DNA from: Chiloscyllium plagiosum
Taxonomy: Eukaryota
Direction of reading: 5' to 3'
Assembly (NCBI RefSeq): GCF_004010195.1
Contig: NC_057719.1
Span: 26,717,498-26,781,497, forward strand
Length of the DNA stretch: 64,000 bases
In this document: piece by piece, positions 1 to 26,587 of the stretch
How positions within the stretch are numbered: the first letter of the stretch is position 1
Layout: every line of letters begins with the position of its first letter
Notes under the pieces: generated by a model
Told to the model about the DNA's origin: nothing
The model's input: only the letters and a program-made list of their open reading frames with translations
Databases searched by the model: none
Made by a program: the position numbers and the translations under genes

Positions 1-354
1 GCCTGTTTACCTCCTCTCCATCATCCCTCTCTATCCACCCCTAACTGACCACTATGGAGCTACAGGATTGACCATGACCCATCACTTGAACGGCAAAGGC
101 ACAATCAAGAACATCCCAATCAGATTTATGACCATGGACAATGCTCTGGACTGTTATCTGAGGCTTCTCTTGAAATACTGTGCCAGACCATCCATTGATG
201 GGTGCCCCCATAGTCTTTGGTGATGACTAGTCTCCTAGAATGTTGCTGCTTAAGCAGACATAGTGCGCTTACTGCATAATCTGCTGGCATATGGAGTAGG
301 TGTGTGACTGGCGCAGCACACTGCCACACAGCAAGACGTATACCTTTTTGACTG

Positions 355-3590: not shown

Positions 3591-3716
3591 GTTCCAATGG
3601 GTATCGTACTCCAAATAACTAGTAGTACTGGATTTGGGCGTGATTAAATTACCTGCTGTGGTTTTGTCTCCAGTAGGGTGATAGTGCCTATAACTTAAAA
3701 ATATGGCAATAGATAT

Positions 3717-6700
3717 TGTGGAATTGAAGAATCCAACTGATATTTATTACATACAAGGATTGTACTTCTTAGATACCCAAGCATGTGAGCTGATATTAAG
3801 TTAATTGGTTACACCAGAGCAACATGCTTTCAATAGCTTGTCTTGCTTCAAGTGATCCTGGGTAGGATGGTGTATCAGATCCTCAGGTCTCAGGTTGTAC
3901 ATAGTGATAACATCATGAGGATATCTTTTAAAAATAGACTGAACATGAGTCAGAACACAATATCCCCTTTCATATCCAAAGATGAAAGTTTCTCCCAAGC
4001 AGATGTACAAGGTTGCACATAGGCACTTGTTCAGTAATTGTGTGAACAAGTAAAACAGAGTTTACTAGACTAACTTTACAAAGTTAAGTGTAACACTTTG
4101 GAAATTTGACAACTTGTCCATATCATATACACATTGTTCTCAGTTGCAACTTGGTTGTATTGTTGCTGGTTGCTGTCACTCAACACCATCACACAATTAA
4201 CACTGAAGTGTTCTTCTCTCTTCTCGTATGTGATTGGTCTGCTGTACGTTGATCTGAACAGGCTTCTGTTCCGTCACAATGTAGCACTATGATCAGTAAT
4301 GACTTTGTAAGATCTGTTTTGGTTATATACTTTAGAAAACTTTACTGGTATCCAAGTATTCGTATTTCCAACTCAAACTATCTTTTTAGTATGCTGTTCT
4401 GGTAATTCTCTAGCTACTCATTTGTTGTGGATCTCTTTTATTTTCTTCTCTCTTTGAAAAGAACATTCAGAATGGTTAGACAGTAGGTTCCTGGACAAGG
4501 TTATTTGCACTTGCCTTCTGACCATAATTTATGCAGGGGATGGTAATCATTTCTCCATTGGTGTTGCTAAAATGAAACAACACAATGAGAAAATCTTGCT
4601 TTATTGCTCGACACTTAAAAATCATTGACATTATAGTGCATACTGTATGTTCCGCTAGACTATTTGAGTGTCAATGGCAATGTAATGATGTGATATAGGT
4701 CCCTAAACATCACTAAATAATTTTCTTGTGTACTGTGGTTTATTATCAGATATTATCCATCCCTGGATATAAACTGAAAATGTGTCTTGCTAAATTGTTG
4801 TACAATGGAAAATTTAGAGAAATAATCCATCACACAAATGTAATCACACTCATGCACCTTGAACAGATCTGTTGCTACATCTTTCCAGGGAGTTGATGGG
4901 ACACTATGTGAATCTGAAGGATCCCTTTGCCACTGGGCTGATATGTTTAGCATGCCTCGTTTATATGCATGATTCATGGAATATCCTGATTCATCCCTGC
5001 CCAGTACAAGGTCACCTGTGCTATATGTCTCATGTATTCTATACCCATCTGTCCCTGCTGTAATATGGTCATGACATTTTGGCATAAAGATTTTAGAATT
5101 AGGATTTCTTTACCATTGAAAATGACTTGTGTTATGGCAAGTTCTTCTCCGTAAGGGAAAAATGAACAAATCTTTTGCATCTTTAATATTGTCATCTCTC
5201 AATGATGATCGTTTACAACAATTCTTGTTGCCATCTTTGGCAGTTGCTGGTTGCAACTCTTCACACTGGCTCTCTCCAAATTGTGACGGATCAACGTTAA
5301 GAATGACAAAACTTCATAGTCTACAGCGTGAATGTATAAAGCAAGAGGGGAATTTTGGTCTTTTCATGGTAGGCCAACCTTTCTCACTGTTAACATCCTT
5401 ATACCTGGTTTAATCTTCCCTCAAAGTCCGATCCTTGGAGATTGTTGCCTGAGTCCTTTAAGTCATGCATGATCTGTCAACAGTCAGTGCCAATTAAATT
5501 TCATGAACTGTGACAATAATGAGATCTGTACATTCTGCTGGACCTACAACTACCAAGTGGGAGCCGTGATGGGCTTGGGTATTGGTGCTGCAGTGTGATT
5601 CTGCCAACACATTGGGAATTGGTCTCTCATGTGCAGAATAATGGAATGCCACTTGCTGTGGTATATGTCATTCAGGGTATGTTGTGGTAATAGCTCCTGT
5701 GTCAATTTTAGCTTTTTGTGTATGTTGTTTGGTTTTTTCAGGAAATATGATGTTACTGGCGTCATCAATGGACTATTAATCCAGAGATCCAGGTAATATT
5801 CTCGGGTCTTGAGTTTGAATCCTACCATAGCAGATGATGGAATTTGAATTCAAAATGATGATGATGAAATCACTGCCAATTGTCAGAAAAGACCTGTTTG
5901 ATTCACTAATGTCCTTTAGGGAAAGAGATCTGCCAGCCTTACCTGGTCCGGCCTACATGTGACTCCAGATGCACAGCAATGTATTTGACTGTTAATTGCC
6001 GTCTGCGACGGTAATGAATGCTGGCCAGGTGATGCACACATCCTGTGAATTAATATTTTTAAATAAGATATCAAAAGTCTGGTCTCTTCGAAACTTGCCT
6101 TTCACTTGGTTGACTCTGAACTTCATTGATGTGTTTGGGATTTTATATCTTTTCTATAACTGTGTAAATGTTGTGGTGTTGTGCCATCTTATTGGTTACC
6201 TTGATTTGTTCTGGCATCTGGCTTAGTATTTGGAGCCAGATTTCATGTACATGCATGCTGAACACCCCTTGGTGCAACATACTTTACAGATAATATGGAC
6301 AGCTTTGGGGTAAGTGCAAAAAACTGCACTTATTATAGATCTTGTTGGTTTGGTGCACTTTGTTGACCGCAGATTAGCCTTGGTTACATTAAAAGTATGC
6401 AATTATTGTTGGCCAGCCATTTTTCCCTCGTATTTCTGTCTATCGTCAAGCAACTTGTCAATGGTATTGCCCTCTCCTTACCCAAAGATCATTCTTGACC
6501 ACTTTAATAGATGTAGATGCAATGACTCACTCGATGAGCTTTGCTCTGAGACCATCTTCAGGAACATCACAATTGTATCATTTGCTGTGGCATTTTCTGA
6601 CAAACTTGTCAACAACTGTTGGGTTTTTTTGTCTCATGACATAAGTTGGAGACTGTTAATCCTGAAATTAACTTTTACTTCAACCTGGTCTTTGAGAACT

Positions 6701-7500
6701 TTCACCATTTTTTTCTGAGTCTTTTTAATTGTCCATAAAAGAGTTGGATGTGCTAAGCCTGTGATTGCCCATTTACCAATGTTGAGTTCTTTTCTCAGAA
6801 TAATCTATCCTTTGGTAAGACCATAAGATATATGAGTGGAATTAGGCTGTTTGGCCCATCAAATCTGCTCCACATTTGAACAATGCCGCTATGTTTCTCA
6901 GTTAAATCTGTAAAATAGAACTGCATGCTTTGTACCTTTTTTTTTAAATTAAGGAATTCACTGATTTCTATCCAACACATAGTTAAGTGATTGGTTGCAA
7001 AATAGCCTTTTTAAAAAAATTAGATCAGCATTCCTCTTTTTTTTAAATAGAGAGAAAGTAATTTGTACAGGTCTGTAATCTTTAGTTTTAATTGCATTTG
7101 TAACTTCAGCCTTTTTAAAAAATCAGGCAATCTCAGAAATTCTTGTATCTTCAAAGTACACACATTCTATTAAAAAGTAAATCAACATTGCCTTCTTGAT
7201 GGTCACTGCCCTATCTACAATCTGTGTTGGCTGTCTGGAATCACAAAAATGATGCTGCAAATTGTCTAAGTTCTCTGATGTTCAAAACTGTTGTCAGTTA
7301 GTCTTCAATTAATTTTCCAAACATCCACCAACAAAAATTAGAGTTTTCTTTATATATGGCCACTGATGCTAACCATAAGATGATTCTGTCTCTTTCAGTG
7401 TGTTCTCATCTGCTGCTGCAAAACTTATGCTATATCCTGCAACACACAAAACTTGGTGAGGCGATTGAGGAATTGAAGAATACAACAGATGTTTAATACA
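3717..7500 (-). mobile_element. Decayed Ty3/Gypsy LTR retrotransposon
   Basis: Integrase motifs GEELAITQVIFNGKEILI...GQMGIE...LYWAGMNQDI and PWKDVATDLF...YICVMDYFSKF at 4753-5195. Gag-like remnant at about 6230-6720. 3' LTR at 3717-3959 (TGTG...CACA) preceded by the polypurine tract GAAAGGGGA. Matching LTR end at 7466-7500. Confidence 0.82.
5740..6050 (+). mobile_element. Deu-domain SINE (SacSINE1-like) nested in the Gypsy element
   Basis: tRNA-like head GGACTATTAATCCAGAG...GAGTTTGAATCC, then TTCACTAATGTCCTTTAGGGAA...CCTTACCTGGTCCGGCCTACATGTGACTCCAGA. Confidence 0.75.
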
Positions 7501-7639
7501 AAATAAAAGCCAAAAGAACTGCAGATGCTGTAAATACTGTAAAAACAGAAATGACTGGAAATGCTTAGCAGGTCTGGCAGCATCTGTGGAGAGAATCAGC
7601 GTTAATGTTTCAGGTTGAGTGGCCCTTCCTTGGAAGGTC

Positions 7640-8250
7640 TAGGACACCATCCTGAGGAACTCCTGCAGAGATGACCTCCAGCAACCATTTTCCTATATTC
7701 CGGGATTGACTCCAATCAGAGGAGAGTTTTCTTCCTGATTCCCATTTTTGCTCGGTTCCCCTCGAAGACGTGCTCAGACAAATGCGGCCTTGATGTTAAG
7801 GGCTGTCACTCTCACCTCACCTCTGGAATTCAGCTCTTTTGTCCAAGGCTGTAATGAGATCATGAGCTGAGTGCCCCTGGGGGAGCCTAAACTGAGGATC
7901 ACAGAGCAGGTTATTGCTGAGCAGGTGCTGCTTGTTAACACTGTTGATGACACCTTCCTTCACTTTACTGATGATGAAGAGTAGACCAATAGGGTAGATT
8001 GGTCCTGCATTTTGTGTACAGGACATACCTGGGCAATTTTTCACACTGTTGGTTATATGCCAGTGTAGTAGGTGTACTGGAAGAACTTGACAAAGGGCAC
8101 AACAAATACTTGAACACACAGCCTTCAATAATATTGCCGGAATATTTTCAGGGCTTGTAGCCTTTGCACTATCTAATGGCTCCATCCATTTTTCTTGATA
8201 TCATGTGGAGTGATTCAAACTGGCTGAAGAATTACATTTGTCATGCCTCA
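7640..8250 (-). mobile_element. CR1/L2-clade RT fragment
   Basis: LDSAKATSPENIPAILLK...PIGLLFIISKVKEGVIN...HLLSNNLL.DPQFR...GHSAHDLITAL. Confidence 0.78.
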
Positions 8251-8479
8251 CTGGAGTAGCATGCTGGCAGTCTGCCCAGTTTAATTCCTTTTTTCAGACT
8301 TATTAAATGGTTGTTACAAATGAATGGTTTCCGAGGCTTTTGCAGAGAACTGGCGAGAGTTAACCATATTGCTGTGGACCCAGAGTCACTTTTTTTTAGT
8401 TTCAAAAATATGTTTTATTCATAAAAAAGTATCTCTATATGCATACATATTCACCATCGCAATTCGGTTGTGTACAGTG

Positions 8480-8690
8480 GCATATGAAGAAACAAACATT
8501 GGAGTTTAACTCGATCCATTTAACTTCAACATAAAGACCTTACATAATGGTCTTTCCCCACTGTGCCTTAGTGGCAGCTGCCCCAAGCTTCAGTGCATCC
8601 CTCAGTACCGAGTCCTGGATCTTGGAATGTGCCAGTCTGCAACACTCATTCAAAGTCAACTCCTTCCTCTGGAAAACCAAGTTTCAGGCA
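8480..8690 (-). mobile_element. Tx1/L1-like 3' fragment
   Basis: Minus strand encodes a decayed VFQRKELT..ECCRLAHSKIQD.VLRDALKLG-like C-terminal motif. Confidence 0.5.
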
Positions 8691-9399
8691 GGCCAAGTAA
8701 GGACAGCAGATTTACTTCCCTGAAGGACATTAGTGAATCATTTAAATGACTATTACTGGACTTATGATCCAGTATGATCGCTGCACAATCCTATAGTATT
8801 TATACTAATCCACCTATCATATCTGCAGCCCACTTATTTGCACATCTAGTAAGGAAGATTAAATATATGTCCTCTATAAATAGCCCTCTTGCAAATTGCC
8901 ATTAGTGAATGTGAATTGATTGTTCTCCATAGGGTGCATGTGCTTGACCACAACAGTACATTGTTTGTTTCATGATTATTTATTTATTTGTTCTTTCTCG
9001 GGATGTGAATGTTGTTAGCGAGATCAGTATTTGCTGTCCATTGTGGATTTGAGAAGATGATGGTGAATTGACTTCTTGAAGCTCACGTGTCCATCTGGTT
9101 TAGGTGTACATACAGTTCTTTTCCAACCCGATATAACATGCAATGTCATTCAGAGAATGCCATTCCAGAAGTAATGGCAAAGTAAAGGGTTGCCCTACCA
9201 ATTGCTACAAGAATTGTGAGTTTAGACAAAAACATTTATTTTTATCCAGTGCTCATGGAGTTGCCATTGGGGTCATGTAAACAGCAGAACTGGAGGCAAG
9301 TCAAAATCTTATTTATAAATGGCTGTTAAAACTGTTTATCAATAGCACCTCCTGAGGGATTCACTTATTTTGCTTTTCTGTACATTCTTCATAGTTTTT

Positions 9400-9730
9400 T
9401 TTATTCATTCACAGGATGAGGACATCTCTGGCCTGGTCAACATTTATTGTCCAGAGGGCAGTTAAGAGTCAAACACATTGCTGTGGATCTGGAGTCACAC
9501 GTAGACCAGACAAGGATGGCAGCTTCCTTGCCTGAAGGATATTAGTGAACCAGGTGAGCGGCTTTTCCAACAATCAACAATGGTCGCCATGAGACTCTTA
9601 ATTTCAGATTTTTTTTGTTGAACTGAAATTCCACCATCTGCCATGATGGGCTTTGAATTCAGGTCCCCAGAACATGACCTGGTCTCTGGATTAACAGTCC
9701 AGCAATAATACCATCAGGCCATCGCCTCCA
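9400..9730 (-). mobile_element. Deu-domain SINE
   Basis: Reverse complement of the 5740-6050 family (TCTGGAGTCACACGTAGACC...GAAGGATATTAGTGAACCA...CTCTGGATTAACAGTCCA). Confidence 0.75.
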
Positions 9731-10559
9731 CATTTTCCTTAATCTTTACAATTAATCAGTTTCATATAAGGATATGTTTTCCCTCTTGTTAGTTCCCTCA
9801 CTACCTTGGTAGGCCCAGCCTGACAGCTATATCCTTTAGTGCTACTGATGGGCTTTGAATTCTCCCACCCAGAGTACATTCTGTGCACTTGCCACCAGTT
9901 CCTGAAGTTCTACGATTACTCTGCATTACAATATTTGCTTCTTCTAGCCTCTCAATGCCCCTCATCACTTTAAAAACTTGCTTCATGTTCCCTTGCTAGC
10001 TCAATTTCTTATTACCAATGAAAATAAATATTGACAGCATCTAAAAAGCATTTTTAAAAAAAAATTATTCAATTTTGTGGTCACACTAGCAAAGAAACCA
10101 ACACAAAATATGAATCCTACTAAAATGGCAGTAGCCTTTCTTTCATAAGTCCGTTTAATCTTTTCATTTGACCTGACTATATTTCAAAGTATTAGTAATG
10201 GTGTCATGACAAAGACAGTTACTGATTGCATCATTTTTACTTGCTATAGAGATGAAGCTAAACATTTACAGTTATTTGATCTTAGTTTGGTAAAAATGGG
10301 TAAGTTGCAGGAACTCGGTTGTTTAAAATGTAGCACCCTGACAAAACGTTTATTAGCTCAGGGCTACTATTATGGATTACAAGCCTCGCATTAGACAAAC
10401 ACAATTTTTGAGTTGTGTTCAACATTTTAATAACCTACTTGATACTTGCTTTGCTTACTCTAAAACAGTATTTAAAAAATACTGAGCACCACAAGTAAGA
10501 AGGAGTTAAATGCCCCTTATATTTGCTGAGGCATTGCCTTCTTGATTTTGTCTTTGGCT

Positions 10560-10884
10560 GTAACATCGTAGGTCAGGTATCCGTTGATATGAGCAGTCTG
10601 ATGTCTGTGACAGGCGAGAGGGAGGAACTGTTGGACGCCAATGCTGATTGACACTTGCTTTCTCCATATATTTCAAAACTGTGAGAGCTTAGAAACCAGC
10701 AGCTAGCGACATCGTATCAGAGCGCTGATAACGTTCATTAATACGTAGATTAAAGGTCCTTCTGTTGTCAGTGTTTGTTTGAGCGAATATTAAAGGTGAA
10801 GCTTCTGTATATCTCGAACATTGAAAAATAATTTGAAGAGTCTCAACTCTTCAAAGACAAGGAAAAGCAGATATAGATCAAAAG
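10560..10884 (+). promoter_or_regulatory. GPHB5: Candidate GPHB5 promoter and 5' UTR
   Basis: Non-repetitive and locally CpG-richer than the flanks. CCAAT at 10638-10642, TATA-like TATATTT at 10667-10673, then an ATG-free leader up to the ATG at 10885. Confidence 0.5.
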
Positions 10885-10898
10885 ATGTGGAGTCACAG
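10885..10898 (+). CDS. GPHB5: GPHB5 inferred exon 1, coding part (ATG TGG AGT CAC AG = MWSH + first 2 nt of Arg)
   Basis: ATG at 10885 with A at -3, followed by a consensus donor CAG|GTGAGT (GT at 10899). Joining to the acceptor exon starting at 18345 (A CTG AAT...) gives the in-frame MWSHRLNHHHIIWGSLLL. No ATG seen in 10644-10884. Inferred without transcript data. Confidence 0.72.
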
Positions 10899-11599
10899 GT
10901 GAGTGATACCCTGGTTTGGAATATTTTGACTTTGCAAAGTAAAATCAACATGACTTAACCCTTTGACATCTTATGTTATTTTAACTTTTACAGTGGCCAA
11001 GTGATGCCTAATAGCGCAGTTTTCGTTTGGCAGTGGTACTTATACTAATTGATTGTATTACATTTGAAGGGAAGATAGTGTGCAGAACTCTACTGCACTA
11101 TCACAAATTTTAATGCTATGGAAGACCTACTTTTCTCTCTGATTGTAAGCTTAAAGTTTAAAGAGGATTCATTGGGCCCACTGATTTGCTTTTAAGATTT
11201 AAGCTTCAAAGGCCCCTAACTATAGTTATGGTGTTAGCTCGTGTGAAACCAAAGCTGTGCAAGGCTACTTCCTTTAGGAAACATGTCAAATTAATGTGTA
11301 TTCAACACAATTACAATGTTCATTTTGAGTGCATTATAACCTTTGCTAAAATGCCTTAGAAAAATGCAGTTACCTATTATTTTTGAAGTTAACCTTTCAA
11401 AGTCAAAATGATACTTTTAACCAACATTTATTTTAATGCAAAATGTCCTAAATTACTTAAGACTTTTAAATTGAATACGAGGAAGATTTCTTTGAAGACT
11501 GTAAAGTTAAAACAAATAATTACACATCGTTTGTGCATAGTCGCATTTCACACACTTTTGTTTGTAAAATAATACTTTCACGTGCCCTGTGGTCTGTGT

Positions 11600-12310
11600 C
11601 ATAGAGTCATACAGCATGGAAACAGAATCTTTGGTCCAACTCATTCATGCTGACTAAGTTTCTCAAACTAAACTAGTCCCACTTGCCCGCATTTGGCCCA
11701 TATCCCTTTCCTATTCATGTACCTGTTCAAAGATCTTTTAAATGTTGTAACTGTATCTGCAACTATCACTTCCTCCGTCAGTTCATTCCATATATAAACC
11801 ACCTTCTGAGTGAATAAGTCGCCCCTCAGATCCCTTTTAAATCTTTCCCCTTTCCCCTTAAAATTATGTCCTCTAGTTGTGAACTGCCCTATCTTAGGGA
11901 AAGGTCCTGCGCTATTCACCTTACCTTTGCTCCTCATGATTTTATAAACCTCTATAAGGTCATCCTTCAGTCTCCTACACTCCAGGGAAAAATGTCCCAG
12001 CCTATTCAGCGTCTCCTTAGAATTTAAAATCTCTAGTCCTGGTAACATTCTTGTAAATCTTGTCTGAAGCCTTTCCAATTCAATAATGCCCTTCTTATGG
12101 CAGGGCAACTAGAACTATATGCAGTACTCCAAAGGTGGCCTCAGCAACTTGACTTCCCAATTCAATACTCAATTCTCTGACCATTGAAGGTAAGCGTGCC
12201 AAATGCCTTCTTCACCACCCTGTGATGCCACTTTCAAGGAATTATGTACCTGAACCCCTAGGTCTCTCTGTTTGACAACACTCCCCAGGGTCTACCATTG
12301 AATGTGTAAG
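11600..12310 (-). mobile_element. CR1 LINE 3' fragment
   Basis: LERLQTRFTRMLPGL...DDLIEVYKIM...FTQKVVYIWNEL. Confidence 0.92.
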
Positions 12311-12315
12311 TCCTG

Positions 12316-12405
12316 AGTGTGGTATTGGAAGAGCACAGCAGGTCAGGCAGCATCCGAGGAGCAGGAGAATAGATATTTCGGGCATGAGCCCTTCATCAGG
12401 AATGA
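12316..12405 (-). mobile_element. Penelope terminal fragment with hammerhead-like core
   Basis: Minus strand reads CCTGATGAAGGGCTCATGCCCGAAATATC...CGGATGCTGCCTGACCTGCTGTGCT. Confidence 0.75.
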
Positions 12406-12741
12406 AACTTGTTGTCAGATTCACTGGCTAGTGTAAAACTGACCAGTACAGACCAGTATGTCTGCTTTTTTGTGTCTGCTGTTCAGTTAGGCTGTTAGGC
12501 CACAGCTGAGCATCCTCAGGGAAAAGGAATATCCAATCAGTCTGAAGTTCCAATCCAAGTAATGGTCAAGAGACTCGATAATGAAGTGTTCAAGTGTATG
12601 GATAAGAATGAGCAAAAAAAATGCCTTATTTGTCGGGCTCACCACAATCAAACAGGCACTAAAGGAATGTCTGCATTTTTATAGCCCAGTACATAAGCTC
12701 AGGCCATCTCATAGTGACTATAGAGTATTTTGGAACCATGC

Positions 12742-12908
12742 AGAAGTGGGTACTGCAGATGCTGGAGATTAGAGTCAAGATTAAGGTAGTGCTGGAAAAG
12801 CACAGCAGGTCAGGCAGCATTCAAGGACCAGGAAAATCAATGTTTCAGGCAAAAGCCCTTCATCAGAAAATCCTGATCAGATCCTCGGATGCTGCTTCAC
12901 CTGCTGTA
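12742..12908 (-). mobile_element. Penelope terminal fragment inserted in an older SINE-like repeat
   Basis: ACTGCAGATGCTGGAGATTAGAGTC...GTTTCAGGCAAAAGCCCTTCATCAG. Confidence 0.72.
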
Positions 12909-14739
12909 TTTTGGAACTGTGGTCACTGTAAGGAACATGGTAGCACACTGTGCACAGCAAAGTCTTATTAATGTAATACTAACCAAGTACTGGCCAAAAC
13001 AATGGGGAGACTTTGCCTTTTCTTCTTCAAAATTGCTTTGGGATCTGTTACATCCATCTGAGAGGAGCTTGCTTTATTGCCTCATTCAAAAGATGGCAGC
13101 TATTAAAGTCATGTAGCTCTGCTCCAGCAAGAAACATCATTGACAACATCCATCTTTTCCCTATCATTGATACGTCTAGAGGCAGATGTATCTCTTACAT
13201 GTGCTTGACATACTGATATAATGCTATACTTGATGGCACACAGCCCAACTGGCTGATATAAAATTGGGCATCTCCAGTTTTGGCAATGCCTAAATTGACT
13301 AGAAATGCAGAAAAAAAAGTTTGAAGCAATAATGTAGAAAAGATTACAGAAGGATTTCTTAAAGAGCCAGGCACTCTTGCAGGTAAGTAAACTTTATGGA
13401 ACTTTCTTAATTGGAATGTGGCTGATAGTTCTCTGGGAATGTTTTTGGGGGTGTTTTGATGAATTCACCAGAGAGATTGTTGCCATATCTTTACAAGGTT
13501 AGCAGTGAAGTAGGTGGCCTGTGCACTTAAGGACTGCTACAGCTATGGGGAGCCAGTAGCCATGCATCTGGGTCTGCAACATGGAGCAGAGACTGCTGGC
13601 AGGATAAAGTCTGTTCACTGTCTGTTACAATCAGTGCCAGACTTCTCCATTGTTTTTGATACTAACAGGAGGCCATCGAGTTAGCCAATGTGAAAGCCCA
13701 ATCAGTGCCTTCCATCACCCTTTGAGATCTTCACCTGAGTCCTCTGTATTAACATAGGAACATAGGATTCAAAAGCAAAATTCAGCCATTTGGCCCTTTG
13801 ATACTGCTGGACCATTTAATAAAATCATGGCTGACCTGGTTGTCGTCTCAGCTTGACTTTCTATCTTCATCCTTTAAGTCAACTCCATTGTCAATCAACA
13901 ATCTGTCAGCCCTCATTACACTTAAAGACCCAGCCCACCCTATTAGCTTCTGGGAAAAACCTACAAACAGCCCTCAGAGACAAAACAAAAACTCTCCATC
14001 TTCGTCTTAAACTCATGTTCAAACTATATTCCCTCGTTTTAGTTTATACCACATAAGGAAATATACTCAAGATATTCAACCCATCCAGTCCATGCAAGAC
14101 CTTATGTTTCAATATGATTGCCTCTCATTCTTCTAAACTCCAATCTGTCCTATCTTTATTAGGCAAGCCTTTCATCGCAAGAATGAGTTGAGTGAGCTTT
14201 CTCTGAACTGCTTCTAAAGCAATGATATCTCCCCACCCCGAGTAAGAAGACCAAAACTGTCGACAGTTTTCCAGATGTGGTCTCACCAAAACCCTACAAA
14301 GCTGCAGTCAATCTTTGTTACTTTTATATTCCATTTCCCTTGCAATAAATAACAACATTCAATTTGCCTTCCTAATCATTTGTTAGAGGTACATACTAAC
14401 CTCACCCTCCACTGAATTGGCAAATTAGCCATTGCTTCATTCTAGCTTGCTTGTAACTCACTTGTGTCCAGTGACTCACCACATGCACAGTTTGAAAAAT
14501 TCTTTCATGGGGTGTGGGCATCACTCCCAAGGTCAGCATTTGTTACATATTCTTCATTGGCCTAGAACTGAGTGGTTTGTTCAGCCATTTCAGTGATTCT
14601 AGGTTCAAGTTCCACTTCAGGATTTGACGATCAAGAAGGATGGTTCATAATAAAGCCAAACACATGGAGTATCAACTTGAAAATCTTTCTAATGCACTGA
14701 TGGCAGGTAGTAAGGGAAGGAGAAATTCTTGGTTATAAG

Positions 14740-15150
14740 GAGAGCCTGGATAGGCTGGGGCTTTTTTCACTGAAGCATAGTAGGTTGAAGGGTGACCTTA
14801 TAGATGTTTATGAAATCGTGAGGGGCATAGTTAAGGTAAATAATAAAGGTCTTTTCCCTAGGGTGAGGGAGTTCAAAACTAGGGGGTACATTTTTAAGGT
14901 GAGATGAGAAAGATTTAAAAGGGACCTGAAGGGCAGCTTTTTCACACAGAGGGTAGTTCGTATGTGGAATGAACTGCCAGAGGAAGTGGGAGATGCAGGT
15001 ACAGTTTCAACATTTAAAAGACAGGAATAAGAAAGGTTTAGAGGAATATGGGCCAAGCACAGGCAAGTAGGACTAGTCTAGTTTGGGAAACTCATTCAGC
15101 ATGGACACGTTGGATTGAAGGGTCTGCTTCCATGCTGTCTGATTCTATGA
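14740..15150 (+). mobile_element. CR1 LINE 3' fragment
   Basis: GGGTGACCTTATAGATGTTTATGAAATC...TGGAATGAACTGCCAGAGGAAGTGG and a CTATGA tail. Confidence 0.9.
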
Positions 15151-16175
15151 AAGGAAAGAATCACTCAAATTGGTGTTGGTCACATGTAGGTCAGAATGGC
15201 AGAGTTCCTTCCCTAAAAGGCATTAGTAACCTTGATAGATGTTCATGATCAATGATCACCATTACTGAGGTTAGCTTATCTTCCAAATTTTATTAATTGA
15301 ACTCAATTTCCACCACCAACCATGGTGGGACTTGAACGCATATCCACAGAGCATTAGACCAGGTACTGCATTACTAATCCCCACCTCTATAGCCCTCACT
15401 AAGAAATTTGCAGTTCCCAGTGTGTGAATTAGAGGCTGAGTGCCAGATTAAATGATAGTGCCTCTTCAAAACTGCTCTAACGTAGCTCTCTCGGGATCCT
15501 GTGGCTGAGTAGCTAAACGTTCTTCAGCATGTCATAGCAAAAATCAAGACGGCAATAAAAGCAGACTGCTGGCTGAAGCTGTGGAGAAACAGAGTTTGTG
15601 TTTTGAGCTCACCATGATTCTTCGTCAGTTCTGACTTGAAATGTTAACTGTGTTTCACTCTCCACAGGTTCTGCCACATCTGCAGAATTTCTCCAGCACA
15701 TCCTGCTTTCATTTTGAAGTTCCAGGATCCATAGTATTTACTTTTATCAAGAGGAAGAAGTTTGGAGTAGGGGAAATAGATAGGGCTGGAAACCAGGCAG
15801 TCCATTATGACACTAAAAGCAGCTTGCTCATCAATCAAGGTGAGGGAGAGAATGAGTATTGAGTATGAGCATAAGGCAGGAAGATGCCATCATCTTCAAT
15901 CTTCCCAACAATGTCAAATGCCACAGGTCCCACAATAGAGAGAACCAGCTCATCCACTGTGGCTCAGGAGATAAAGATGTCTTTGCCCCTGGCTGGGTCT
16001 GCTCCTTTCCGCTGTACATCTCTATTTCTCAAAAGAGAGACAGCAAAATATTAGTAATTGTGTTGCGCTGTGCTTGAATGATGTGTGACATTGCTGAAAT
16101 AGCTGAAGGAAGAAGTGGTTGGTGTGGGGTAATTAAAGTGTGGTATTTGGATATTAGACAGGTGTCTGAGTAGGC

Positions 16176-16720
16176 AAAAGCGAGGACTGTAGATGCTGGA
16201 AATCAGGGTCTAGATTAGAGTGGTGCTGGAAAAGCACAGCAGGTCAGGCAGCATCCGAGGGTCAGGAAAATTGACATTTCGGGCAAAAACCCTTCATCAG
16301 GAATGAAAGCAGGGAGCCTCCAGGGTGGAGAGATAAATGGGCTGAGCTGGAAGTTTGGAACTGGGACAAGGTGGGGAGAGGGGAAATGAGGAAACTGGTG
16401 AAGTCCACATTGATGCCCTGGGGTTGAAGTGTTCCGAGGCGGAAGATGAGGTGTTCTTTCTCCAGGCGTCGGGTAGTAAGGGAGTGGCGGTGGAGGAGGC
16501 CCAGGACTTGCATGTCCTCGGCAGAGTGGGAGGGGGAGTTGAAATGTTAGGCCACGGGGCGGTGGAGTTGATTGGTACATGTGTCCCAGAGATGTTCCCT
16601 AAAGCGCTCTGCGAAAAGGCATCCAGTCTCCCCGATGTAGAGGAGACTGCATCGGGAGTAACAGATACACTAAACGACATTGGTGGATGTACAGGTGAAA
16701 CTTTGATGGATGTGGAAGTG
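16176..16720 (-). mobile_element. Penelope-like element 3' part (GIY-YIG tail and terminal repeat)
   Basis: MQVLGLLHRHSLTTRRLEKEHLIFRLGTLQPQGINVDF and a terminal CTGATGAAGGG...CCCGAAA. Confidence 0.88.
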
Positions 16721-17909
16721 TGTCAGGTACTGCAGAGAGGTTAGCATTGGGGATGTGGTGTACTGAGCAGTGCAAGACTTTGTTGTCCAGTGGGTAAGAG
16801 CTATCAGGTGAAGATACATTCAGTGACACTGACCACTTGTTTGAGATCATCAGACCTCTTGCAACATAGCTGCTGGACCCTAACATCCAGATTCTGGAGT
16901 TAACCTTCCTCACCACTCGTTCCTACTCCCTTCTAAGGGTAATCCTCGAGGGTCTCATGGCACACAGTGGGTCCATGCTTTTTCTTGCTGTCCACTGAAA
17001 TGACTAAATCATCCACTGTCATTTCTGTCTGGATTTCAGTGTTTTAATTACCTCCATATTTCCCTTAAGATAGTTTGCCTTTCAAAATGCGGAGGTTTCC
17101 CTCAGCAAGCCACACTATTGATGCCACATACTGTGTGTAGAGCTGACTGGCAGCATGGGGAAGAGCTCATCGGCACTAGCAGCAAGGCAAACGGTATTGA
17201 AATCATGCAGATGAGGAGTGTAGGTGTGAAAGGGTACAAGCACACTGCAAAGTGTGGCTTTCCCATTCCCACCGAAATCAGGGCTAATGTATTTGTATTC
17301 CAGTACCTCTCTGATTACTGTGTTGAAGTGCCAGCATACATTTTGTGCTCAGTTTACTGAAAAGTGGTGAGGAAGAAAAATGTATAGAGTACAGCATAAG
17401 GCAATCATTCCAAGCTAGGACTGCACCACAAAACGTATCAGTTGGGGTCCACTGTATTTGCCCAGGAAACTTGCTGCAAACCAGCACGAAGTTCAATGTG
17501 TATGCAAATTATAGAAGTAATGTTTATTCACAGCCCTCTCCAGGTTTGGAGCCTGAGTGATCACAATCTGAACTATGCAATTTGTAAACTGTTTTCTCAG
17601 ATCTATTTTAACCAAACAAAATTTCAAAGGAAGCAATTCGTTCTGCTATGTGAGGAAAGACTGCAAGATGAAATGCTTCTTCTTTCAAGGTTCTGTACTA
17701 CCAATCACCTTGTGCATTGGATTTGATGTGACTGTTGATTGTTTCTAGGCCTTTGTGTTACTTTTCAATTCAGGAATACAAAACTGTGCAAATTAAATGT
17801 AGTTGTGCTATATTCATTTTTCTTAGGTGCAATTTTTTAGTGTAAATTACATAATTCACATTAAACCACTAATATTAATGTAGCATTTTTAATTAAATTG
17901 TGAGTTGTG

Positions 17910-18180
17910 CATATTGCCCAGAATCAGCCACATTTATGTGGGTCTGAAGTCACATATAGGTCAGGCCAAGGAAAAGATGCCAGATTTTCTTCCCTAAAAG
18001 ACATTAGTGAAGTGAATCAGATGGTCTTTTTATGATGATAGGGATACATGGTTGTCATTAGACAAGTTTTCATTCCAGATATTTATTGAATTCAGAATAT
18101 AACCATTTACCATGGCAAGATTCAAACACATGCCTTGAACATTAGCTTGGGTTCTGGATTACAAGTGAGGCAATATTACC
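17910..18180 (-). mobile_element. Deu-domain SINE just upstream of GPHB5 exon 2
   Basis: GGGTCTGAAGTCACATATAGGTCAGGCC...TTCCCTAAAAGACATTAGTGAA. Confidence 0.7.
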
Positions 18181-18344
18181 TTGAATTGAGAACCTCCAGA
18201 GAGACACGATTGATGTCATAGAGTCATAGACCTTTTTGATCATAAAGGATCATTGGCTATACACGAGAGTATTGCATGATACTATAGTTTACTTATTTTA
18301 GTCTATTATTAGAATTAACAAATTAAAATATGTGTTTGTTTCAG

Positions 18345-18549
18345 ACTGAATCACCACCACATAATCTGGGGGAGTCTTCTTCTGCAGTTGCTGGTTGTCT
18401 ATGTCAATGTGCTTCCAGCCTCCAATATCAGCTTGCGGACATTCATTGGCTGTGCTGTAAGAGAGTTCACATTCCTGGCTAAGAAACCAGGATGTAAAGG
18501 ATTGCGAATCAACACGGATGCTTGCTGGGGACGATGTGAAACCTGGGAG
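18345..18549 (+). CDS. GPHB5: GPHB5 exon 2: signal peptide and N-terminal half of the cystine knot
   Basis: Acceptor TTTGTTTCAG|A. Translates (R)LNHHHIIWGSLLLQLLVVYVNVLPASNISLRTFIGCAVREFTFLAKKPGCKGLRINTDACWGRCETWE, then donor GAG|GTGAGC. Matches the recalled vertebrate GPB5 sequence LRTF(V/I)GCAVREFTFLAKKPGC.GLRITTDACWGRCETWE. Missed by the ORF track because it has no ATG. Confidence 0.97.
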
Positions 18550-19456
18550 GTGAGCCAGGAATCCTGACTGTATCATTTTCCTCCTGAATTCTATTTGCTG
18601 TACTCTGCTGGAGAACAAAGTAAAGTAAAACTTTACTGTCTTTGATGTGAAATCACAATGTCTAAAATCCAGAGATAGGTAGCTTTTTAAAATATTAAAA
18701 TAATATCAACTGAATATTTAACATTAAATCTACATCAATGGTGTCAGAAATCATTCAAATCCTATGAGAAAAGATGTGAGGCATTTTTCATAAATGTTGC
18801 AATGACATTTAAAATGAGTCTTTCAGCAATTGACCACTGGTAATATTATTACAGCTTTCAACACCTGTTCTCTAATGTGTCACAATTATTATCATTGTTT
18901 GCAGCATAATTTAATACTTCCCAGCTCACCAATGATTAATTAAAAACCCACTTAGTTCAACTAAGCAACACTGTTACTTTCCTAATCAGAATCACCAAAA
19001 ATAATCTCCTAAAAGATCATTCCCTACTAAAAAAAAATACACTTATAATTTAGAGAGACTAGTGAATATCAGTATGCAGAGGAAATTGGCTGGGCTTACA
19101 CAGAAAGTTAACAGACAAGTGCATCTAGCAATTGGGAAGGCAAATTATGGGGTATTGGAAGACAAGAGCAAGGAAGGCCTCTGTGGTTGTATAGGATTTA
19201 CGGGAGACCTTGCCTGTGTATGGTGTACAGTTTTGGGGCATGATGTTTTGATATTTTTTAAATAAAATGTTGGGTGGCTATGTTCGGTGATGACTAATAC
19301 ATGAAGTGGGGCGAGAGGGCTTCAAAGGAAGCTTAAGGGATGGCTTCTAGTCCACTCCCTTGCCTGCACTGATGCCTCCAATTGCTCAGTTTGAGTGAAT
19401 TGAAAATATTCCTCCCCCATCCAGGCAGGCACATGAAAGAACCACATGCAAGGTGA

Positions 19457-19640
19457 GATTGATATCCTTCTTGGTCATAAACAATCATTTGATGTGCATG
19501 GGTATGCTGTATTATACCATGTTTTATTGATATTTTTTCCCCTATGATTAGAATTAACAAACTAAAATGTGTGTTTGTTATAGACTGAATCATCACCCCA
19601 TAATCTGGGGAAGGCTTATTCTTCAGTCACTGGTTGCCCT
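19457..19640 (+). pseudogene. Diverged partial duplicate of the GPHB5 intron1/exon2 boundary (pseudo-exon)
   Basis: ATTAGAATTAACAAACTAAAATGTGTGTTTGTTATAG|ACTGAATCATCACCCCATAATCTGGGGAAGGCTTATTCTTCAGTCACTGGTTG aligns to 18308-18397 (ATTAGAATTAACAAATTAAAATATGTGTTTGTTTCAG|ACTGAATCACCACCACATAATCTGGGGGAGTCTTCTTCTGCAGTTGCTGGTTG). Weaker similarity extends about 90 nt further upstream. Confidence 0.9.
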
Positions 19641-20009
19641 GGCTTCTCAGCAGAAAGATAGCTACTTTATCACCCACTGGGAAGGCAGATAATTGGGAGG
19701 TGGTGAACTGAAGCCCTTAAGAGGCCACTGATTGACTACTTGATGGCCTTAATTGGTGGTGGGTTGAGAAAGTTTCAGTGTTTGACCTCCTTGTGGGTCT
19801 GCTCCTGGGCCTGGCCATTACCAAGTCCAGGCAGTGGGGCGGGTAGGGGGTCGTTATGACTGCCCCTCTTCCATGATTATGTTCAGGCCGGGGTGTCCCT
19901 GGAAAAGGAGCATGCAGCAACCTCTTTAGGGAGAGCTGGGCACTGCAGCAGGTGGAGCATTGCTCGTTCTGTGCTTTGCTTGTCCACATGGGTGATTTTC
20001 CTGGTGGTG

Positions 20010-23000
20010 CGGCAGTAATAAAGTTATTTATACTTGGTGTTTTCACTGTGTCTTGCAACTACTCATACACAAGATGGGTGCTGGAATTATAAGCGCTACT
20101 GCTGTGTGTGGGGGGGAAAGGGAAAAAAATAGAAAGTCCCAGTGGACACACTTGCCCAGAACTTAGTGAGATGACAAGAAAGGGGGTGAGTATCAAGCTA
20201 GTGCTAACTTGCCTATTTGTTTCACTTTCTCACCACCTCCGGGGAAGGGAAAACCATATTTTTGGTTCCACTACTAAAGGAAGGTATCTTACAAAGGGGT
20301 AGAAAAAGAACAAATCATATAAAGGTTCAGGCTAAAAGGTCAGTCATTAAAATTAAATTAAATTAAATAATTGAAGTAGGGCTGGGTACAAAAAATAAGA
20401 GAAGACACCATGAGAGAAAGCTACTGGAGGAATCTCTACTCAGGCTGCTTAAAGCAGGCTAAACATTGTGTTATTTAAAAGGAGTAACCTTTCTGGACTA
20501 ATACAGAATTTTTTTCAGGAAACAAGGAGAATAAAGTGTGAGTTATAGTGATGCATCAAAGCATGGGGAAACTTCCAAGACATCTGCAAAGGGCAGAAAA
20601 ACCTTCATCGTGGCCACAAAGACTGGGAAAACTTCTCAGTACAACAGAAAACCAGAGAAGGAACAACAACAACCAAAAAGTAGATAAATTACTTATTCAC
20701 ATTAGGAAGCTATAACATCAGAAACAATATTGTTAGAAAGACTTAGAGTCAGAGTCATAGAGATGTGCGGCATGGAATCAGACTCCTCGAAGCAACGACC
20801 AGATATCCCAAACCAATCTAGTCCCACATGCCAGCACCTGGCCCATAACCCTGTAAACCATTCCTATTCATATATCAGTCCAGATGCCTTTTAAATTTTG
20901 CAATTGTACTAGCCTCCACCACTTCCTCTGGCAGCTCATTCCATACACGTACCACCCTCTGTGTAAAAATGTTGCCCCTTAGGTCTCTTTACCCTCTCAC
21001 CCTAAACCTATGCCCTCTAGTTCTGGACCCCCCACTCCAGGGAAAAGACTTTGTCTATTTATCCTATCCATGCCCCTCATAATTTTGTAAACCTCTATAA
21101 GGTCCCCCCTCAGCCTCCAACATTCCAGGGAAAACAGCTCCAGCCTGTTCTACCTCTCCTTACAGCTCAAATCCTCCAAACCTGGCAACATCCTTGTAAA
21201 TCTTTTCTGAACCCTTTCAAGTTTCACAACATCTTTCCGATAGGATGGAGACCAGTATTGCATACAGTATTCCAACAGTGGCCTAACCAATGTCCTATAT
21301 AGCTGCAACATGACCTCCCAATTCCTGTACTCAATACCCTGACCAATAAAGGAAAGCATATCAAACATCACTATCCTATCTACCTGCAACTCTACTTTCA
21401 AGGAGCTATGAACCTGCACTCCAAGGTCTCTTTGTCCAGTAACACTCCCTCGGACCTTACCATTAAGTGTATAAGTCCTGCTAAGATTTGCTCTATTTCA
21501 GAAATAGGCCAAATGGAACATAAAATTGAAGATCTCGGGGAAAACAATTCTTGTTGTACGGAACAGCTTCAAAACATGACTTTAAGACAGAAGCTGAACA
21601 AGTACATATACTTTTGTATGCAACTGGGTGTACAGCAGACACTGTTATTGCTTGCCAAGTGGTAAATTAAATACCAGATAAATTTCAAGAGACACTAAAT
21701 CCTCTGACAATTATTTCAGCCTCAGAATCAATAAAATTCTTGCAAGGGCAAGATTAAAGTAAAACTGTGCAAAATCCATGGATGATTTTATCCAATATCG
21801 ACAGGCTAATGGACAGATGCAGTAATGCCAACAATAATCTTGTCTCTCATGCTATTAAAGACTGGATCGTTGTTGGCATTACAGATGAGCTTTTCAGATT
21901 TATTAAAGTCAAAAGAAGATCCAGCTCCAGGGAAAACCATTCAGTTGGTGAATGAAGCCGAAATGTGGAACTAAAGCTGTTCAATCCTAAGAAAATAAGA
22001 TAAAACCAAGACACAGGAGAGCTATGGAACCTATTCATTTCTTAAAGTACAAAGCCACAAAAGGCACACCCGATCAGCCAATGAAGCAGTTAGGACAGAC
22101 ACCAGACATTAAAGAACTGTGCCAACACCGCGGAGCAAAGAAAGCTCACAAACGCAAAGGGTGCCCTTCCTTAAATACCGAACGCTGTTTTTAAAAGTGA
22201 ATCAATAATGTGCTGAAGCAGGAGACGGCTACAGAAAAGTAAAATACCAGAGAATTTCCCACACAAGGAGAGAAATGAAGCAAAACAGCCGTCAGTAGAA
22301 TATTAAAGCAATATTTTCCTAGGGGAGAATCTTTTGATTTTGATAATCAAATACTTATGCATCATATGAATTTCAATTTAGACACAAAGCAATTTTATTG
22401 GTTAGTGACCCTTGATTGATACACGATGCTTATAGCCAATAGAAACTCAACTTTATGCTGAAGGGGCACTGAACCTAATTTTAAAGATAGGCTGCAAGGA
22501 ACTCGCCTGTGTCAAGGTAGTAGAAAACCTGTATGTACCTTACAACCAAGAATTCTCTCTCCTGAGTGGAAGGTTACATATCAAAGTCAATTTCATTCGA
22601 AAGGTTAAGCAAACAGAATCTAAAAAAAGTTGCTTTGAATATGAATTGAATAAAAGGTTTGACTGATTTAAAATCTAATGCAATGTTACACTAAGTGAAG
22701 ATGCTAAATCCTTTATAAACCCTGGAATATACTACATTGCTTCATGAAACCAGTTGAGAACCAACTTATTGAGGTGTCACAAATTGGAATCATTTTCCTG
22801 GGCGCAGAACTAACAAAGTGGTACTGAGACAGGTTTATCATACCTAAGCCTAGTGATACTGTTTATGTTTGTATTCAACTCAACACATTAGTAGCAATAG
22901 AAATTCACCCTATGTCCACGGTTATAACAGTCTAGCCAAAATCTCTAAGAGCTGAGTTTTCAGAAAATGCGAAGCATATAGCTGATTTTGTGAGCACTAT

Positions 23001-24620
23001 TGGATGAGCAATCAGGAATACTTATCACGTTTATAATACCTTTTGGAAGATATTGTTTCAGTTAATTACCATTTTGGTATTGCATTTGCACCAGAGATTT
23101 TCCATTGAGCAATATCAGATATCATGACATTGTTGGGGATTTATATGTTGCATGGATGTTATGTTGATCAATGGGAAACAGTTGAAGAGTATGATCAGAG
23201 AATATGTGAAGTCTGAAAATGTTCACCAGCTGAAAGTCTCATATTTAATAATATGTACAAATTCTCCAAGGAATCCATCCATTTCTGTTCACCACATTGT
23301 TGGTCTAAAGGTGGTCATTGAAATGGATCACAAAATTTGGATTATCTACTGGACAAGGAGGAATTTACAAGAATGCCTCCAAGAGTACAAAGATTTTGAC
23401 TTTGCCTCATGAGATTTGCCTATGAAAAAGTCTAGATGCAGACATTGGTAGATGAACTGTCCAGAATAATGGTATGACAGCCTTACCAATTGCGATGCAG
23501 ACTTCATCTAAGAAGTCAACCTGGTCCAAGCAGCACAATGGCCAGCAGGTCACAAATGATCCAGCCAAATTTGACAAGAACAAATGAGGGCTGAGGAATG
23601 CCATATTGCACCAACAATTGGCCCACATCAAAGACCCAATGGTATGACTATGAAAGTGCATTCTGAACACAAGAATTGATAACATCATTATTGATGATAT
23701 TTAAATGTATGAGGAATGATGGGTCAAACCCAGCTTTACATCAAGAGGACATCTTGGTTATTTGGGAATCATCAAATGCTGCATGAGAGCTAAGATATCA
23801 GTGTGGAGGCCTGGAATCTGCAGGCTCATTGACAAACTCATTGCCAATTATTAGATATGAGCCAGACAATGGAACTTTGATTACATACCAAATTCTCCAG
23901 ACCTTGGGAATATGTAGGGATGGCTTGGTGTGTTTTCAGCTGAAAGGCTTACCTCATCATCGTGAATTATTCCTCTTGATGGATTGAGGTTAAGACATTG
24001 AATAGGAGGACTACAGAAGCAGACAACAGACTTGCGACTTCTCCAACACACAGCCTCCCATATATGGTGATGGAGGAAATACAGCCACAATTCATGAATC
24101 AATGCTTCAGCAACTTTTCAGCCAGTTCTGAAATTGAGCATGTCATAAGTTAACCACAGTACCCACAAAAACTGGCTCCACATTTACGCCTTCCTGATTA
24201 CTAAGTAGTACATTATAAAGAGTAATTCTATTAAACACAGCTGGTGACAAACATTGCAATAAATGCTATCAAATAAGTAACATACCAGAACTACAAGTGG
24301 GGCAATGGGCAAGAATCAGGGATTTAAACAGAAAAGGTAGAATCATCCTTGGAGCTGTGAGGCCATAGAGATCATACATCATCCATCCTGAAGGGGCTGT
24401 AAAAAGGATGTGTGGGCACATCAGCCCATTATGACTGAGCTTTTGACAGTAAACACCAGCCATTGTGTTGATGTCACAGGACTTTGTCACAGAGAAAAGG
24501 AGTTTGTGGAAGAACGATCTGAGGCTAGTGTGCGCCTAATAGTTTCTACCACATTATAGGTCATATTGATGTTACCTGTTAATAGCGCAACTCATCTGGT
24601 GTTAACTAACATAGGAAAAT
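20010..24620 (+). mobile_element. Heavily decayed Ty3/Gypsy element in GPHB5 intron 2
   Basis: Gag-like IKDWIVVGITDE at about 21850. RT LDEQSGILITFIIPFGRYCFS*LPF/GIAFAPEIF at about 23000-23105. Integrase zinc-finger-like remnant at about 23720-23830. PBS-like TGGGTGCTGGAA near 20075 and a purine tract near 24490. Boundaries are approximate. Confidence 0.78.
20745..21495 (-). mobile_element. CR1 LINE 3' fragment nested in the Gypsy element
   Basis: LQLYRTLVRPLLEYCMQYWSPSYRKDVVKLERVQKRFTRMLPGL. Confidence 0.93.
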
Positions 24621-24833
24621 GTACTTCTAGTGTATCAGTAAAACTTTTAACACCTTATGGTGATGAAGTTGAATCCAGCAAAAATAAAAGTAGGTTGAAC
24701 AGTGTTAGGGTTACAATTATAGTATTACTGTTTGTTTCACTTTGTTTTGAATATATGCACGCAGGCAGCAAATGGTTCTACTTGCTGTTCCCGAAATTAT
24801 TTTCTAAATATTGTTCACTGCTTTTGCTCATAG

Positions 24834-25022
24834 AAACCAGTCCTTGATCCTCCATACATTGAAGCACACCATCGGGTCTGTACCTATAACGAAACCAGGT
24901 TCATCACAGTGAAACTACCCAATTGTCGGGCTGGGATAGATCCATACTACACGTATCCTGTAGCAATGCGGTGTGACTGCGGTGTCTGTTCAACTGCCAC
25001 CACTGAGTGCGAGACTCTGTAA
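24834..25022 (+). CDS. GPHB5: GPHB5 exon 3: C-terminal half and stop
   Basis: Acceptor CTTTTGCTCATAG|, phase 0. Translates KPVLDPPYIEAHHRVCTYNETRFITVKLPNCRAGIDPYYTYPVAMRCDCGVCSTATTECETL*. With exon 2 this gives 10 Cys, the NET sequon and no seatbelt, as in GPB5. Confidence 0.98.
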   Translation, partial: KPVLDPPYIEAHHRVCTYNETRFITVKLPNCRAGIDPYYTYPVAMRCDCGVCSTATTECETL

Positions 25023-25061
25023 AATCTCCAGTTTTACTTGAAGCTGCAAAACAAACATCAC

Positions 25062-25514
25062 ATTAAAGTTTTTTATTTTTTGGAGAATTTTGATTTGTTG
25101 GTTGAAACTGAAATTAAAATTTATATCTCCAGAAAAGCCTTACCTGGTGACAATTCTTCCCTGAGGTTATTTTGCAGCAATTAAAAAGAAAACATTGAAA
25201 ATGATTTGGACATACATTTAATAATTTACAAAGATCTGTTTAGAAAAGTATCAATTTTTAAAAGCATTCTTCCTAAACTATACTAAACATAGTAGAAACA
25301 GAGACACACAGAAACAGGTCAGTTACCTATCAAGTCTACACTTGTATAAAAATCAAAAATACTGGAAATACTCAGGAAGTCAATAGTGCGAAAGAGTTTA
25401 TCAGAACTACCTGTAGGTTTGACAGCTAGTTCAATCTCACTGTACAGTGCATTCACCACACCATACCATAATCTCCTTTTTAACTCAACTAAATAATTCC
25501 ACATTTTTAATAAA
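25062..25514 (+). other. GPHB5: Candidate GPHB5 polyadenylation signals
   Basis: ATTAAA at 25062-25067 followed by a T/GT-rich tract, further ATTAAA copies nearby, and AATAAA at 25509-25514. Confidence 0.4.
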
Positions 25515-26587
25515 AGATATAAGATTTTAACTCTTTCAAAACCCATCCTCATAATCAGTTCAAACTGTGCCCCATCCATGTGGCATCTGTTTCAATAATG
25601 GTTTCGAAATTTAGCATTCAAACTCTTCACTCCGTAGATAAATGTTCTCCAACCTTTCCATAATTTTTTCTTTTAATGATCAATTAGTACATGAAGACCA
25701 ATTGCAATATTGAGGTCAAGTATGGAAGGGATGTGTGAAGAGGAAAGGAGGGAGAATAGAGACAAAGGAAGTAAGAGGCAAGGGAGAGTGAAGAGAGCTA
25801 CAGGAGGAAGGAGGAGATGGCTAATTGAACATGAATGGGGAAATGGGAGGTCTGGAGAAAACAAGAAGCAGGGGTGCAAGGTATGACTAGGAAAGAAAAG
25901 GCATAGGGAAAAAGGCTAAGGATGTCAAATTCTGTCAAAGACCATTTTTCATTTTGGAAAGTAAAGAAAGTTTCACTACTGCCAGGTCTGGTGAGAGGAT
26001 GGAAACACACCTTGCTTTAGCATAGTAACATGTTTTTCATTGATGATTAGTCACATTATATTGGAAAGGAGAATCTATGTTGAAAGGAGAAGTACCTTTC
26101 TAAAAGGGGTCATACTGAGACACATTCTGTTTGCAGTATACTGCATGTACACTGTACAGATATATGCAGCAGTGTATGTAGCATTGCCACCCCCTGGTCA
26201 GGGTGTGCAATTGCACCAATTTATGATAACAGTCTCAGTTGTAATATGTTTCTTGTGGTAATGACCCATTTGAAACTTTCACATTCTATCACAACAGTGT
26301 GTACCTGTTGGTTTTACATGAGCAATTATGGCTGCTTTCCATGTTTAATGTATCATAGATGGATGCCATACATACCACCATGCCAACCAACTACTTTCCA
26401 CTTTGTACATTACGTAGCCTTTAATGTTTTTAAATCATCTATTTGGTTTCTTCAGCTTTACATAAATTATTTTTCCCTTATCTCCACTCCACTCTCACCC
26501 CCTTCTCCTCCCACTCCCTTAACATTCCACATCTATAAACAGTTATCCCCAATAATGGTCAACTGAATCTCCTCGATTGCATCCCCA

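Follow-up and report, generated by a model that had tools for sequence, protein, structure and literature searches.

The 64,000-nucleotide stretch of the Chiloscyllium plagiosum genome analysed here (NCBI RefSeq assembly GCF_004010195.1, contig NC_057719.1, positions 26,717,498 to 26,781,497 of the forward strand; hereafter the window, in whose own numbering all positions are given) carries on its + strand a three-exon GPHB5 gene, which encodes the beta subunit of thyrostimulin. The second exon of this gene has a CTG where most bony vertebrates have their start ATG, and translation very probably begins at an ATG at position 10885, in an upstream exon that would be spliced in frame onto exon 2. 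The leucine-for-methionine state is common to sharks and rays and is not private to C. plagiosum, and the N-terminus opened by the upstream ATG is already present in the automatic RefSeq annotation of several of these species.

The sequence at 10882-10904 reads AAG ATG TGG AGT CAC AG/GTGAGT (the slash marks the exon border here and below), and exon 2 begins ag/A CTG, with the acceptor AG at 18343-18344 and the CTG, codon of Leu6, at 18346-18348. No in-frame ATG is found between 18200 and 18552, and the intronic frame before exon 2 contains three stops within 30 codons. Joining the coding part of the upstream exon (10885-10898, +; M-W-S-H and two bases of an Arg codon), exon 2 (18345-18549, +; the remainder of the predicted signal peptide and the first half of the cystine knot, 97% to Rhincodon GPHB5) and the coding part of exon 3 up to its TAA (24834-25022, +) gives 408 nucleotides (nt) and a precursor of 135 amino acids with ten cysteines and without internal stop. 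Both introns are of the GT..AG type, the putative intron 1 being 7446 nt long (10899-18344, +; phase 2, CAG/GTGAGT ... TTTCAG) and intron 2 6284 nt long. These coordinates and the 135-residue reading frame had been put forward in a first-pass annotation of the same DNA, and they proved correct when the sequence was re-read and the pieces joined. The product is identical to the whale shark protein (Rhincodon XP_048455790.1) at 131/135 positions, the first five residues included, and to zebra shark GPHB5 at 129/135.

Domain content, protein matches and cysteine pattern support the assignment to GPHB5. Exon 3 matches the cystine-knot family PF00007 (Cys_knot) with 52.6 bits for a cut-off of 24, while exon 2 by itself matched no family, and all the named proteins among the best 120 matches listed are GPHB5, the rest being unnamed or hypothetical (top match 97%). 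Residues 15-25 form a hydrophobic core whose mean of 2.36 falls in the range of 11 homologues (1.98-3.0), and the predicted signal peptide would be cleaved after Ala30. The ten cysteines, the lack of a seatbelt pair and the conserved N-glycosylation site (sequons at residues 32 and 92) are those that excerpts of two studies use to recognise GPB5 (PMC6752823, PMC12691860). The first of these excerpts describes GpB5a and GpB5b as paralogues from an early genome duplication with two coding exons, and places GpB5b next to PPP2R5E and KCNH5, and not next to GPA2 (PMC6752823). In our gene tree (42 rows chosen from 305 anchored proteins, mature region only), two GPB5a-type proteins form a supported clade of their own and the shark proteins lie outside it. 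As to function, GPB5 pairs with GPA2 to act on a glycoprotein hormone receptor; reviews report that a single-chain catshark construct activates such a receptor and that the elephant shark dimer does not (PMC12691860, PMC8522476).

The upstream ATG exon appears to be more than a chance reading frame. The donor following 10898 has the top score among the 1094 + strand GT sites in 1-18340, using a rough frequency matrix. Since 15 of the 69 donors scoring at least 6 also have an open in-frame ATG upstream, it is the rank of this donor, rather than the frame alone, that is rare. The pattern M-[W/C/S]-S-H-AG/GT, derived from the proteins of sharks and rays, has a single occurrence in the 64-kb window, at 10885, and is absent from the - strand; its expected number by chance in the upstream 18.3 kb is 0.0005. 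The ATG lies in the context AAG ATG T, with A at -3, and AnnAUG is termed an "optimal" context in the excerpted text of PMC3025576. An in-frame TGA is located 17 codons before it. The 241 nt that precede it (10644-10884, +) are free of ATG, a length reached by 11 of the 1312 ATG-to-ATG gaps of the window (a weak, post hoc indication), and likely contain the part of the upstream exon that belongs to the 5' untranslated region (UTR); a possible acceptor lies near 10772. The CTG at 18346 is not a sequencing error, being matched by leucine in all elasmobranch models (see below) and by an old copy of exon 2 in the window that also reads ag/A CTG.

Protein searches, together with cluster look-ups in which 15 of 42 members of the shark protein cluster were listed, provided 14 elasmobranch models from 13 species. 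All 14 have a leucine 35 residues before the first cysteine, and in none is there a methionine at -31 to -37. Nine of them start with the same or nearly the same peptide, M-[W/C/S]-S-H-R-L-N (Rhincodon, Stegostoma, Heptranchias, Hemitrygon, Hypanus, Mobula hypostoma, Leucoraja, Amblyraja and Rhinoraja), thus covering carpet sharks, a hexanchiform, skates and stingrays, and a tenth, Pristis, starts M-S-R-L-N, exactly two codons fewer and with the frame kept. The split between sharks and rays is some 250-300 million years old. The RefSeq entries for Rhincodon (XP_048455790.1), Stegostoma (XP_048394337.1), Heptranchias (XP_067847146.1) and Leucoraja (XP_055497170.1) show the same 135-residue precursor and the same five-residue start, differing by 4-34 substitutions only; they are automatic and silent on the change of start codon. 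The expectation in the first-pass annotation that annotation would truncate or miss the gene is not supported: RefSeq has the N-terminus in 9/14 models, although 4/14 carry other, probably wrong, N-termini. These four are two Chiloscyllium punctatum models, Scyliorhinus torazame (intron read-through) and a partial Mobula birostris. All four rejoin the other sequences at Leu6, preceded by Arg, Gly or Leu, which fits the prediction of a phase-2 junction with A as the first base of the exon. The GenBank model GCC33478.1 (C. punctatum) draws its N-terminus from 10601-10630 (+), 280 nt before the ATG exon, and is probably a mis-prediction.

The second C. punctatum model, from RefSeq, raises the question of whether a different first exon supplies the start in C. 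plagiosum, with the exon at 10885 being minor. Its upstream pieces match the window by tblastn, at 5742-5792 (+) together with 2260-2301, and open in-frame ATGs precede other good donors, as described above. This alternative seems very unlikely to us, since 5742-5792 overlaps a repeat (80% over 85 nt to 9618-9701 reversed) and its donor scores 6.3 versus 13.1, and since the N-terminus in question appears in only one of the 14 models, the other C. punctatum model using another piece and none of the four deviating N-termini recurring in a second species.

The available reads, from runs X1, X3, X4 and X5 mapped onto 5620-25600, are dominated by repeats, and the kind of run X1 is not on record. 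A search for runs with exon 2 gave 4/16 rows containing the stretch, all of unrecorded kind and from one study, with none listed as RNA. A contig of X1 (record 8; 771 nt, depth 92.5) matches without difference from the exon 3 acceptor to 25455, and thus into the likely 3' UTR (25023-25514, +; AATAAA at 25509), and has 147 further letters before the acceptor. This contig fits a spliced transcript of exons 2 and 3, in which the 147 letters would be exon 2. The bin with the ATG exon has a contig depth of 7.5 in X1, compared with 0.3-3 in repeat-free intron bins; the corresponding depths of 18.4 in X3 and 7.1 in X4 come with a higher background, and none of these values was counted as evidence. 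In X5 (raw single-cell reads, of which about 2% were read), the exon bins have zero depth. The splicing of the ATG exon is therefore suggested by conservation and by gene models. Separately, X3 and X4 contigs at 18568-18655, and X3 also at 21735-21753, show clustered substitutions and small indels, which could reflect small rearrangements or intronic alleles that have diverged.

If the exon is spliced in, scanning ribosomes would meet the ATG at 10885 before the CTG, and would produce the 135-residue precursor. Initiation wholly or largely at the CUG, which would yield the ancestral precursor of 130 amino acids, for instance if the first exon of a transcript carried no ATG, had also been contemplated in the first-pass annotation. 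CUG is the most efficient non-AUG codon and an A at -3 is favourable, as stated in the excerpt of PMC3105428; the spliced context here is AGA CTG A, Leu6 is invariant in 14/14 models and alternative upstream exons do occur in models. Nevertheless, we found no support for this idea and consider it extremely unlikely, as a conserved in-frame AUG in the "optimal" context would stand five codons ahead of the CUG once the exon is spliced in, and the base at +4 is A, not G. In addition, a near-cognate codon results from any substitution at the first base of ATG, and the residue at this site in lizards is Val or Thr. The conservation of Leu6 concerns the residue and not the codon, the other species being seen as proteins, and it was rejected as a sign of CUG use because nine elasmobranchs share the same residue at 15 of the first 30 positions. 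Very improbable as well is a splice-controlled dial, in which the choice of first exon would decide between efficient production of the 135-residue form from the ATG exon and weak production of the 130-residue form from the CUG with an ATG-less exon, kept through shark and ray history. Were such a dial real, first-exon splicing would set the output of a hormone subunit, at a site of start loss in at least three vertebrate lineages.

Outside elasmobranchs, the comparison comprised 291 proteins (305 of 308 anchored in total; the set is redundant and includes fragments). Methionine is found at -35 from the first cysteine in 181/291 of them and within -31 to -37 in 222/291, so vertebrates in general do not have the coding mini-exon. 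The start methionines of alligator, sturgeon, bichir, coelacanth and mammal proteins align onto the shark Leu6 without gaps, confirming that the CTG occupies the methionine position of bony vertebrates. The residue at -35 is Met in bichir, sturgeon, coelacanth and most tetrapods, and two GPB5a-type paralogues have it at -33. Among the 24 models that run upstream of this methionine, 12 have Ser or Arg just before it (AG/C ATG, or AG/A and AG/G ATG), including those of mammal, alligator, turtle and coelacanth. As the acceptor AG with one exon base gives precisely these residues, the position of intron 1 is likely the same. A Pseudophryne frog model (M-S-S-Q-T-M, 135 amino acids) was considered as a homologue of the shark exon and rejected, because it may reflect intron read-through and other frogs differ there. 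Taken together, the methionine at -35 in bony vertebrates, the Ser/Arg junction residues, the methionine of the GPB5a-type proteins and the two-exon structure of the paralogues indicate that the exon-2 ATG is likely ancestral and the CTG derived, as judged from protein models.

The opposite polarity should nevertheless be considered, namely that early jawed vertebrates already had the exon-1 ATG, alone or with the exon-2 ATG, and that different lineages then lost either of the two. Neither elasmobranchs nor neopterygians have the exon-2 methionine, the first piece of a saury model comprises four residues as in sharks, and the elephant shark sequence given in the PMC6752823 supplement begins at an internal methionine 18 residues before the first cysteine, which hints at its absence from chimaeras too. 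However, since the authors trimmed the signal peptides, the first methionine of that entry proves nothing; that chimaeras also lack the exon-2 start is only a hint, and no chimaera N-terminus was found among the matches listed in the protein searches or cluster look-ups. Moreover, the upstream peptides of sharks, gar and teleosts, and lizards are unlike in length and sequence, and the distribution of the methionine at -35 and -33 described above argues against an upstream start in early jawed vertebrates. On balance, this alternative appears unlikely, and an ancestral start in exon 2 is preferred.

Comparable shifts are seen in two other groups. In lizards, position -35 is occupied by Val or Thr in the models of Anolis, Sceloporus, Phrynosoma and Pogona, which have an earlier methionine, 6 or 9 residues upstream where the model is short; each of these residues is one base away from ATG if coded GTG or ACG. 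The model of the agamid Phrynocephalus keeps both methionines. All five iguanian genera (Anolis, Sceloporus, Phrynosoma, Pogona and Phrynocephalus) have Ala at -36, apart from an intron-read-through Pogona model with Ser, and the two lizard groups differ in the position of the upstream methionine (5 and 8 upstream codons). In ray-finned fishes, the gar, bowfin and teleost GPB5b models start earlier than the usual methionine, whereas those of bichir and sturgeon do not. The upstream peptide measures four codons in sharks and about nine in gar and most teleosts, and the sequences differ too. Between two saury isoforms, the difference is a single codon immediately following residue 4; together with a comparison of gar and alligator gar models, this points to a first exon that is coding and to a tandem acceptor. 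Exon borders in all these species were read from protein models only and are thus provisional. Given these patterns, a move of the start out of exon 2 and into exon 1 likely occurred on at least three occasions, in sharks and rays, in gar, bowfin and teleosts, and in iguanian lizards. In the gene tree, squamates, neopterygians and batoids are supported as groups but the deeper forks are not (8/38 inner branches supported), and the tree was therefore rejected as proof of independent losses, having no resolution at depth. In the same tree, a second GPB5 of the reedfish Erpetoichthys calabaricus groups with the coelacanth GpB5a (support 100/98), being identical to it at 73/94 positions versus 67/94 for the reedfish GpB5b, although PMC6752823 concludes, on the basis of gar and sturgeon, that ray-finned fish other than teleosts lost GpB5a.

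A simple turnover likely accounts for these observations. The ancestral ATG would have been located one base inside exon 2, and in an ancestor of sharks and rays an in-frame ATG would have arisen 14 nt before the donor of exon 1. If the signal peptide tolerated the extension, the exon-2 ATG would have become redundant and could have drifted to CTG by a single substitution. The first-pass annotation assumed a loss followed by a rescue; the reverse order, gain first and loss after, is more likely, because losing the sole start would have disabled the gene. The same two steps likely took place independently in iguanian lizards and neopterygian fishes. The outcome would be a signal peptide five residues longer, with a mature hormone subunit predicted to be unchanged.

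Several points weigh against this interpretation. The joint between 10898 and 18345 is not among the 15 of 1959 joints listed; as these all derive from repeats, the list speaks neither for nor against it. In X3 and X4, contigs run through the 10898 donor without splicing, as expected of genomic DNA or pre-mRNA. The proteins in its favour are gene models whose RNA support is not visible and which may copy one another; the Rhincodon protein is an "isoform X2", isoform X1 being outside the 15 of 42 cluster members listed, and 4/14 models have other N-termini, including the C. punctatum RefSeq model whose upstream pieces occur in the window. Regarding the history of the start, its date and polarity are deduced from bony vertebrates and from two paralogues; the remaining 12 of the 24 extended models, mostly from frogs, do not fit the AG/N-ATG pattern; and, with 8/38 inner branches supported in the gene tree, the independence of the three losses depends on the known species tree.

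The shark gene can be compared with several known systems. It shares with the GPHB5 (GpB5b) of tetrapods, coelacanth, sturgeon and bichir the ten-cysteine knot, the N-glycosylation site in exon 3, the spacing between signal peptide and first cysteine and, likely, the position of intron 1. In contrast, those proteins have their start methionine in exon 2, 130 amino acids and two coding exons (PMC6752823, excerpt), where the shark has a leucine and a third, upstream coding exon. A short coding first exon is also known in a paralogous beta subunit, human LHB, with five codons (primer ATG GAG ATG CTC CAG/GTAAGA in the excerpt of PMC5943644); it is, however, a different gene, and its first exon ends in phase 0 rather than in phase 2. 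Excerpts of work on tandem in-frame and non-AUG starts indicate that a nearby second in-frame start is common and gives redundancy for turnover (PMC3025576, PMC3105428). Those cases are conserved alternative starts, the non-AUG ones lying mostly upstream of the AUG, whereas in shark GPHB5 the downstream AUG is gone and a CUG lies five codons behind the remaining one. In the literature searched, whose coverage leaves out key chondrichthyan GPB5 papers, no description of a coding first exon or of a start change in shark GPB5 was found, and the excerpts of PMC6043452, PMC4341566 and PMC3280201 hold nothing on a shark upstream exon. Among the other beta subunits, FSHB and TSHB have retained a first exon without coding sequence.

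Two further features of the window deserve mention. The old copy of exon 2 is a decayed partial duplicate within intron 2 (19466-19636, +), comprising the end of intron 1 and the first 53 nt of exon 2, with 76% identity over 171 nt and 86% over the last 95 nt. This tandem copy lies 1.24 kb downstream and keeps the acceptor ag/A CTG as a possible cryptic acceptor. At the codon that is CTG (Leu17) in the working exon it reads ATT, for the Ile also found in other sharks. It was rejected as a second gene or a useful alternative exon, since its frame closes after 35 codons. An exon at 46339-46581 (-), tail to tail with GPHB5, encodes a CAAX-like C-terminus and has no Pfam match; we take it to resemble the last exon, and thus the C-terminus, of RHOJ.

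The mature hormone is likely unchanged by the shift of the start, and the mechanism would be an ordinary one. In practice, the N-terminus is fixed for the cloning and annotation of shark and ray GPHB5. More generally, this gene could provide a tidy and testable example of how a start codon is exchanged by way of a redundant intermediate, a state that the Phrynocephalus model with both methionines would represent. The exchange would be favoured by an ATG one base from a splice site and by a tolerant signal peptide. What remains of interest is that one gene appears to have shifted its start codon in the same way in three vertebrate lineages.

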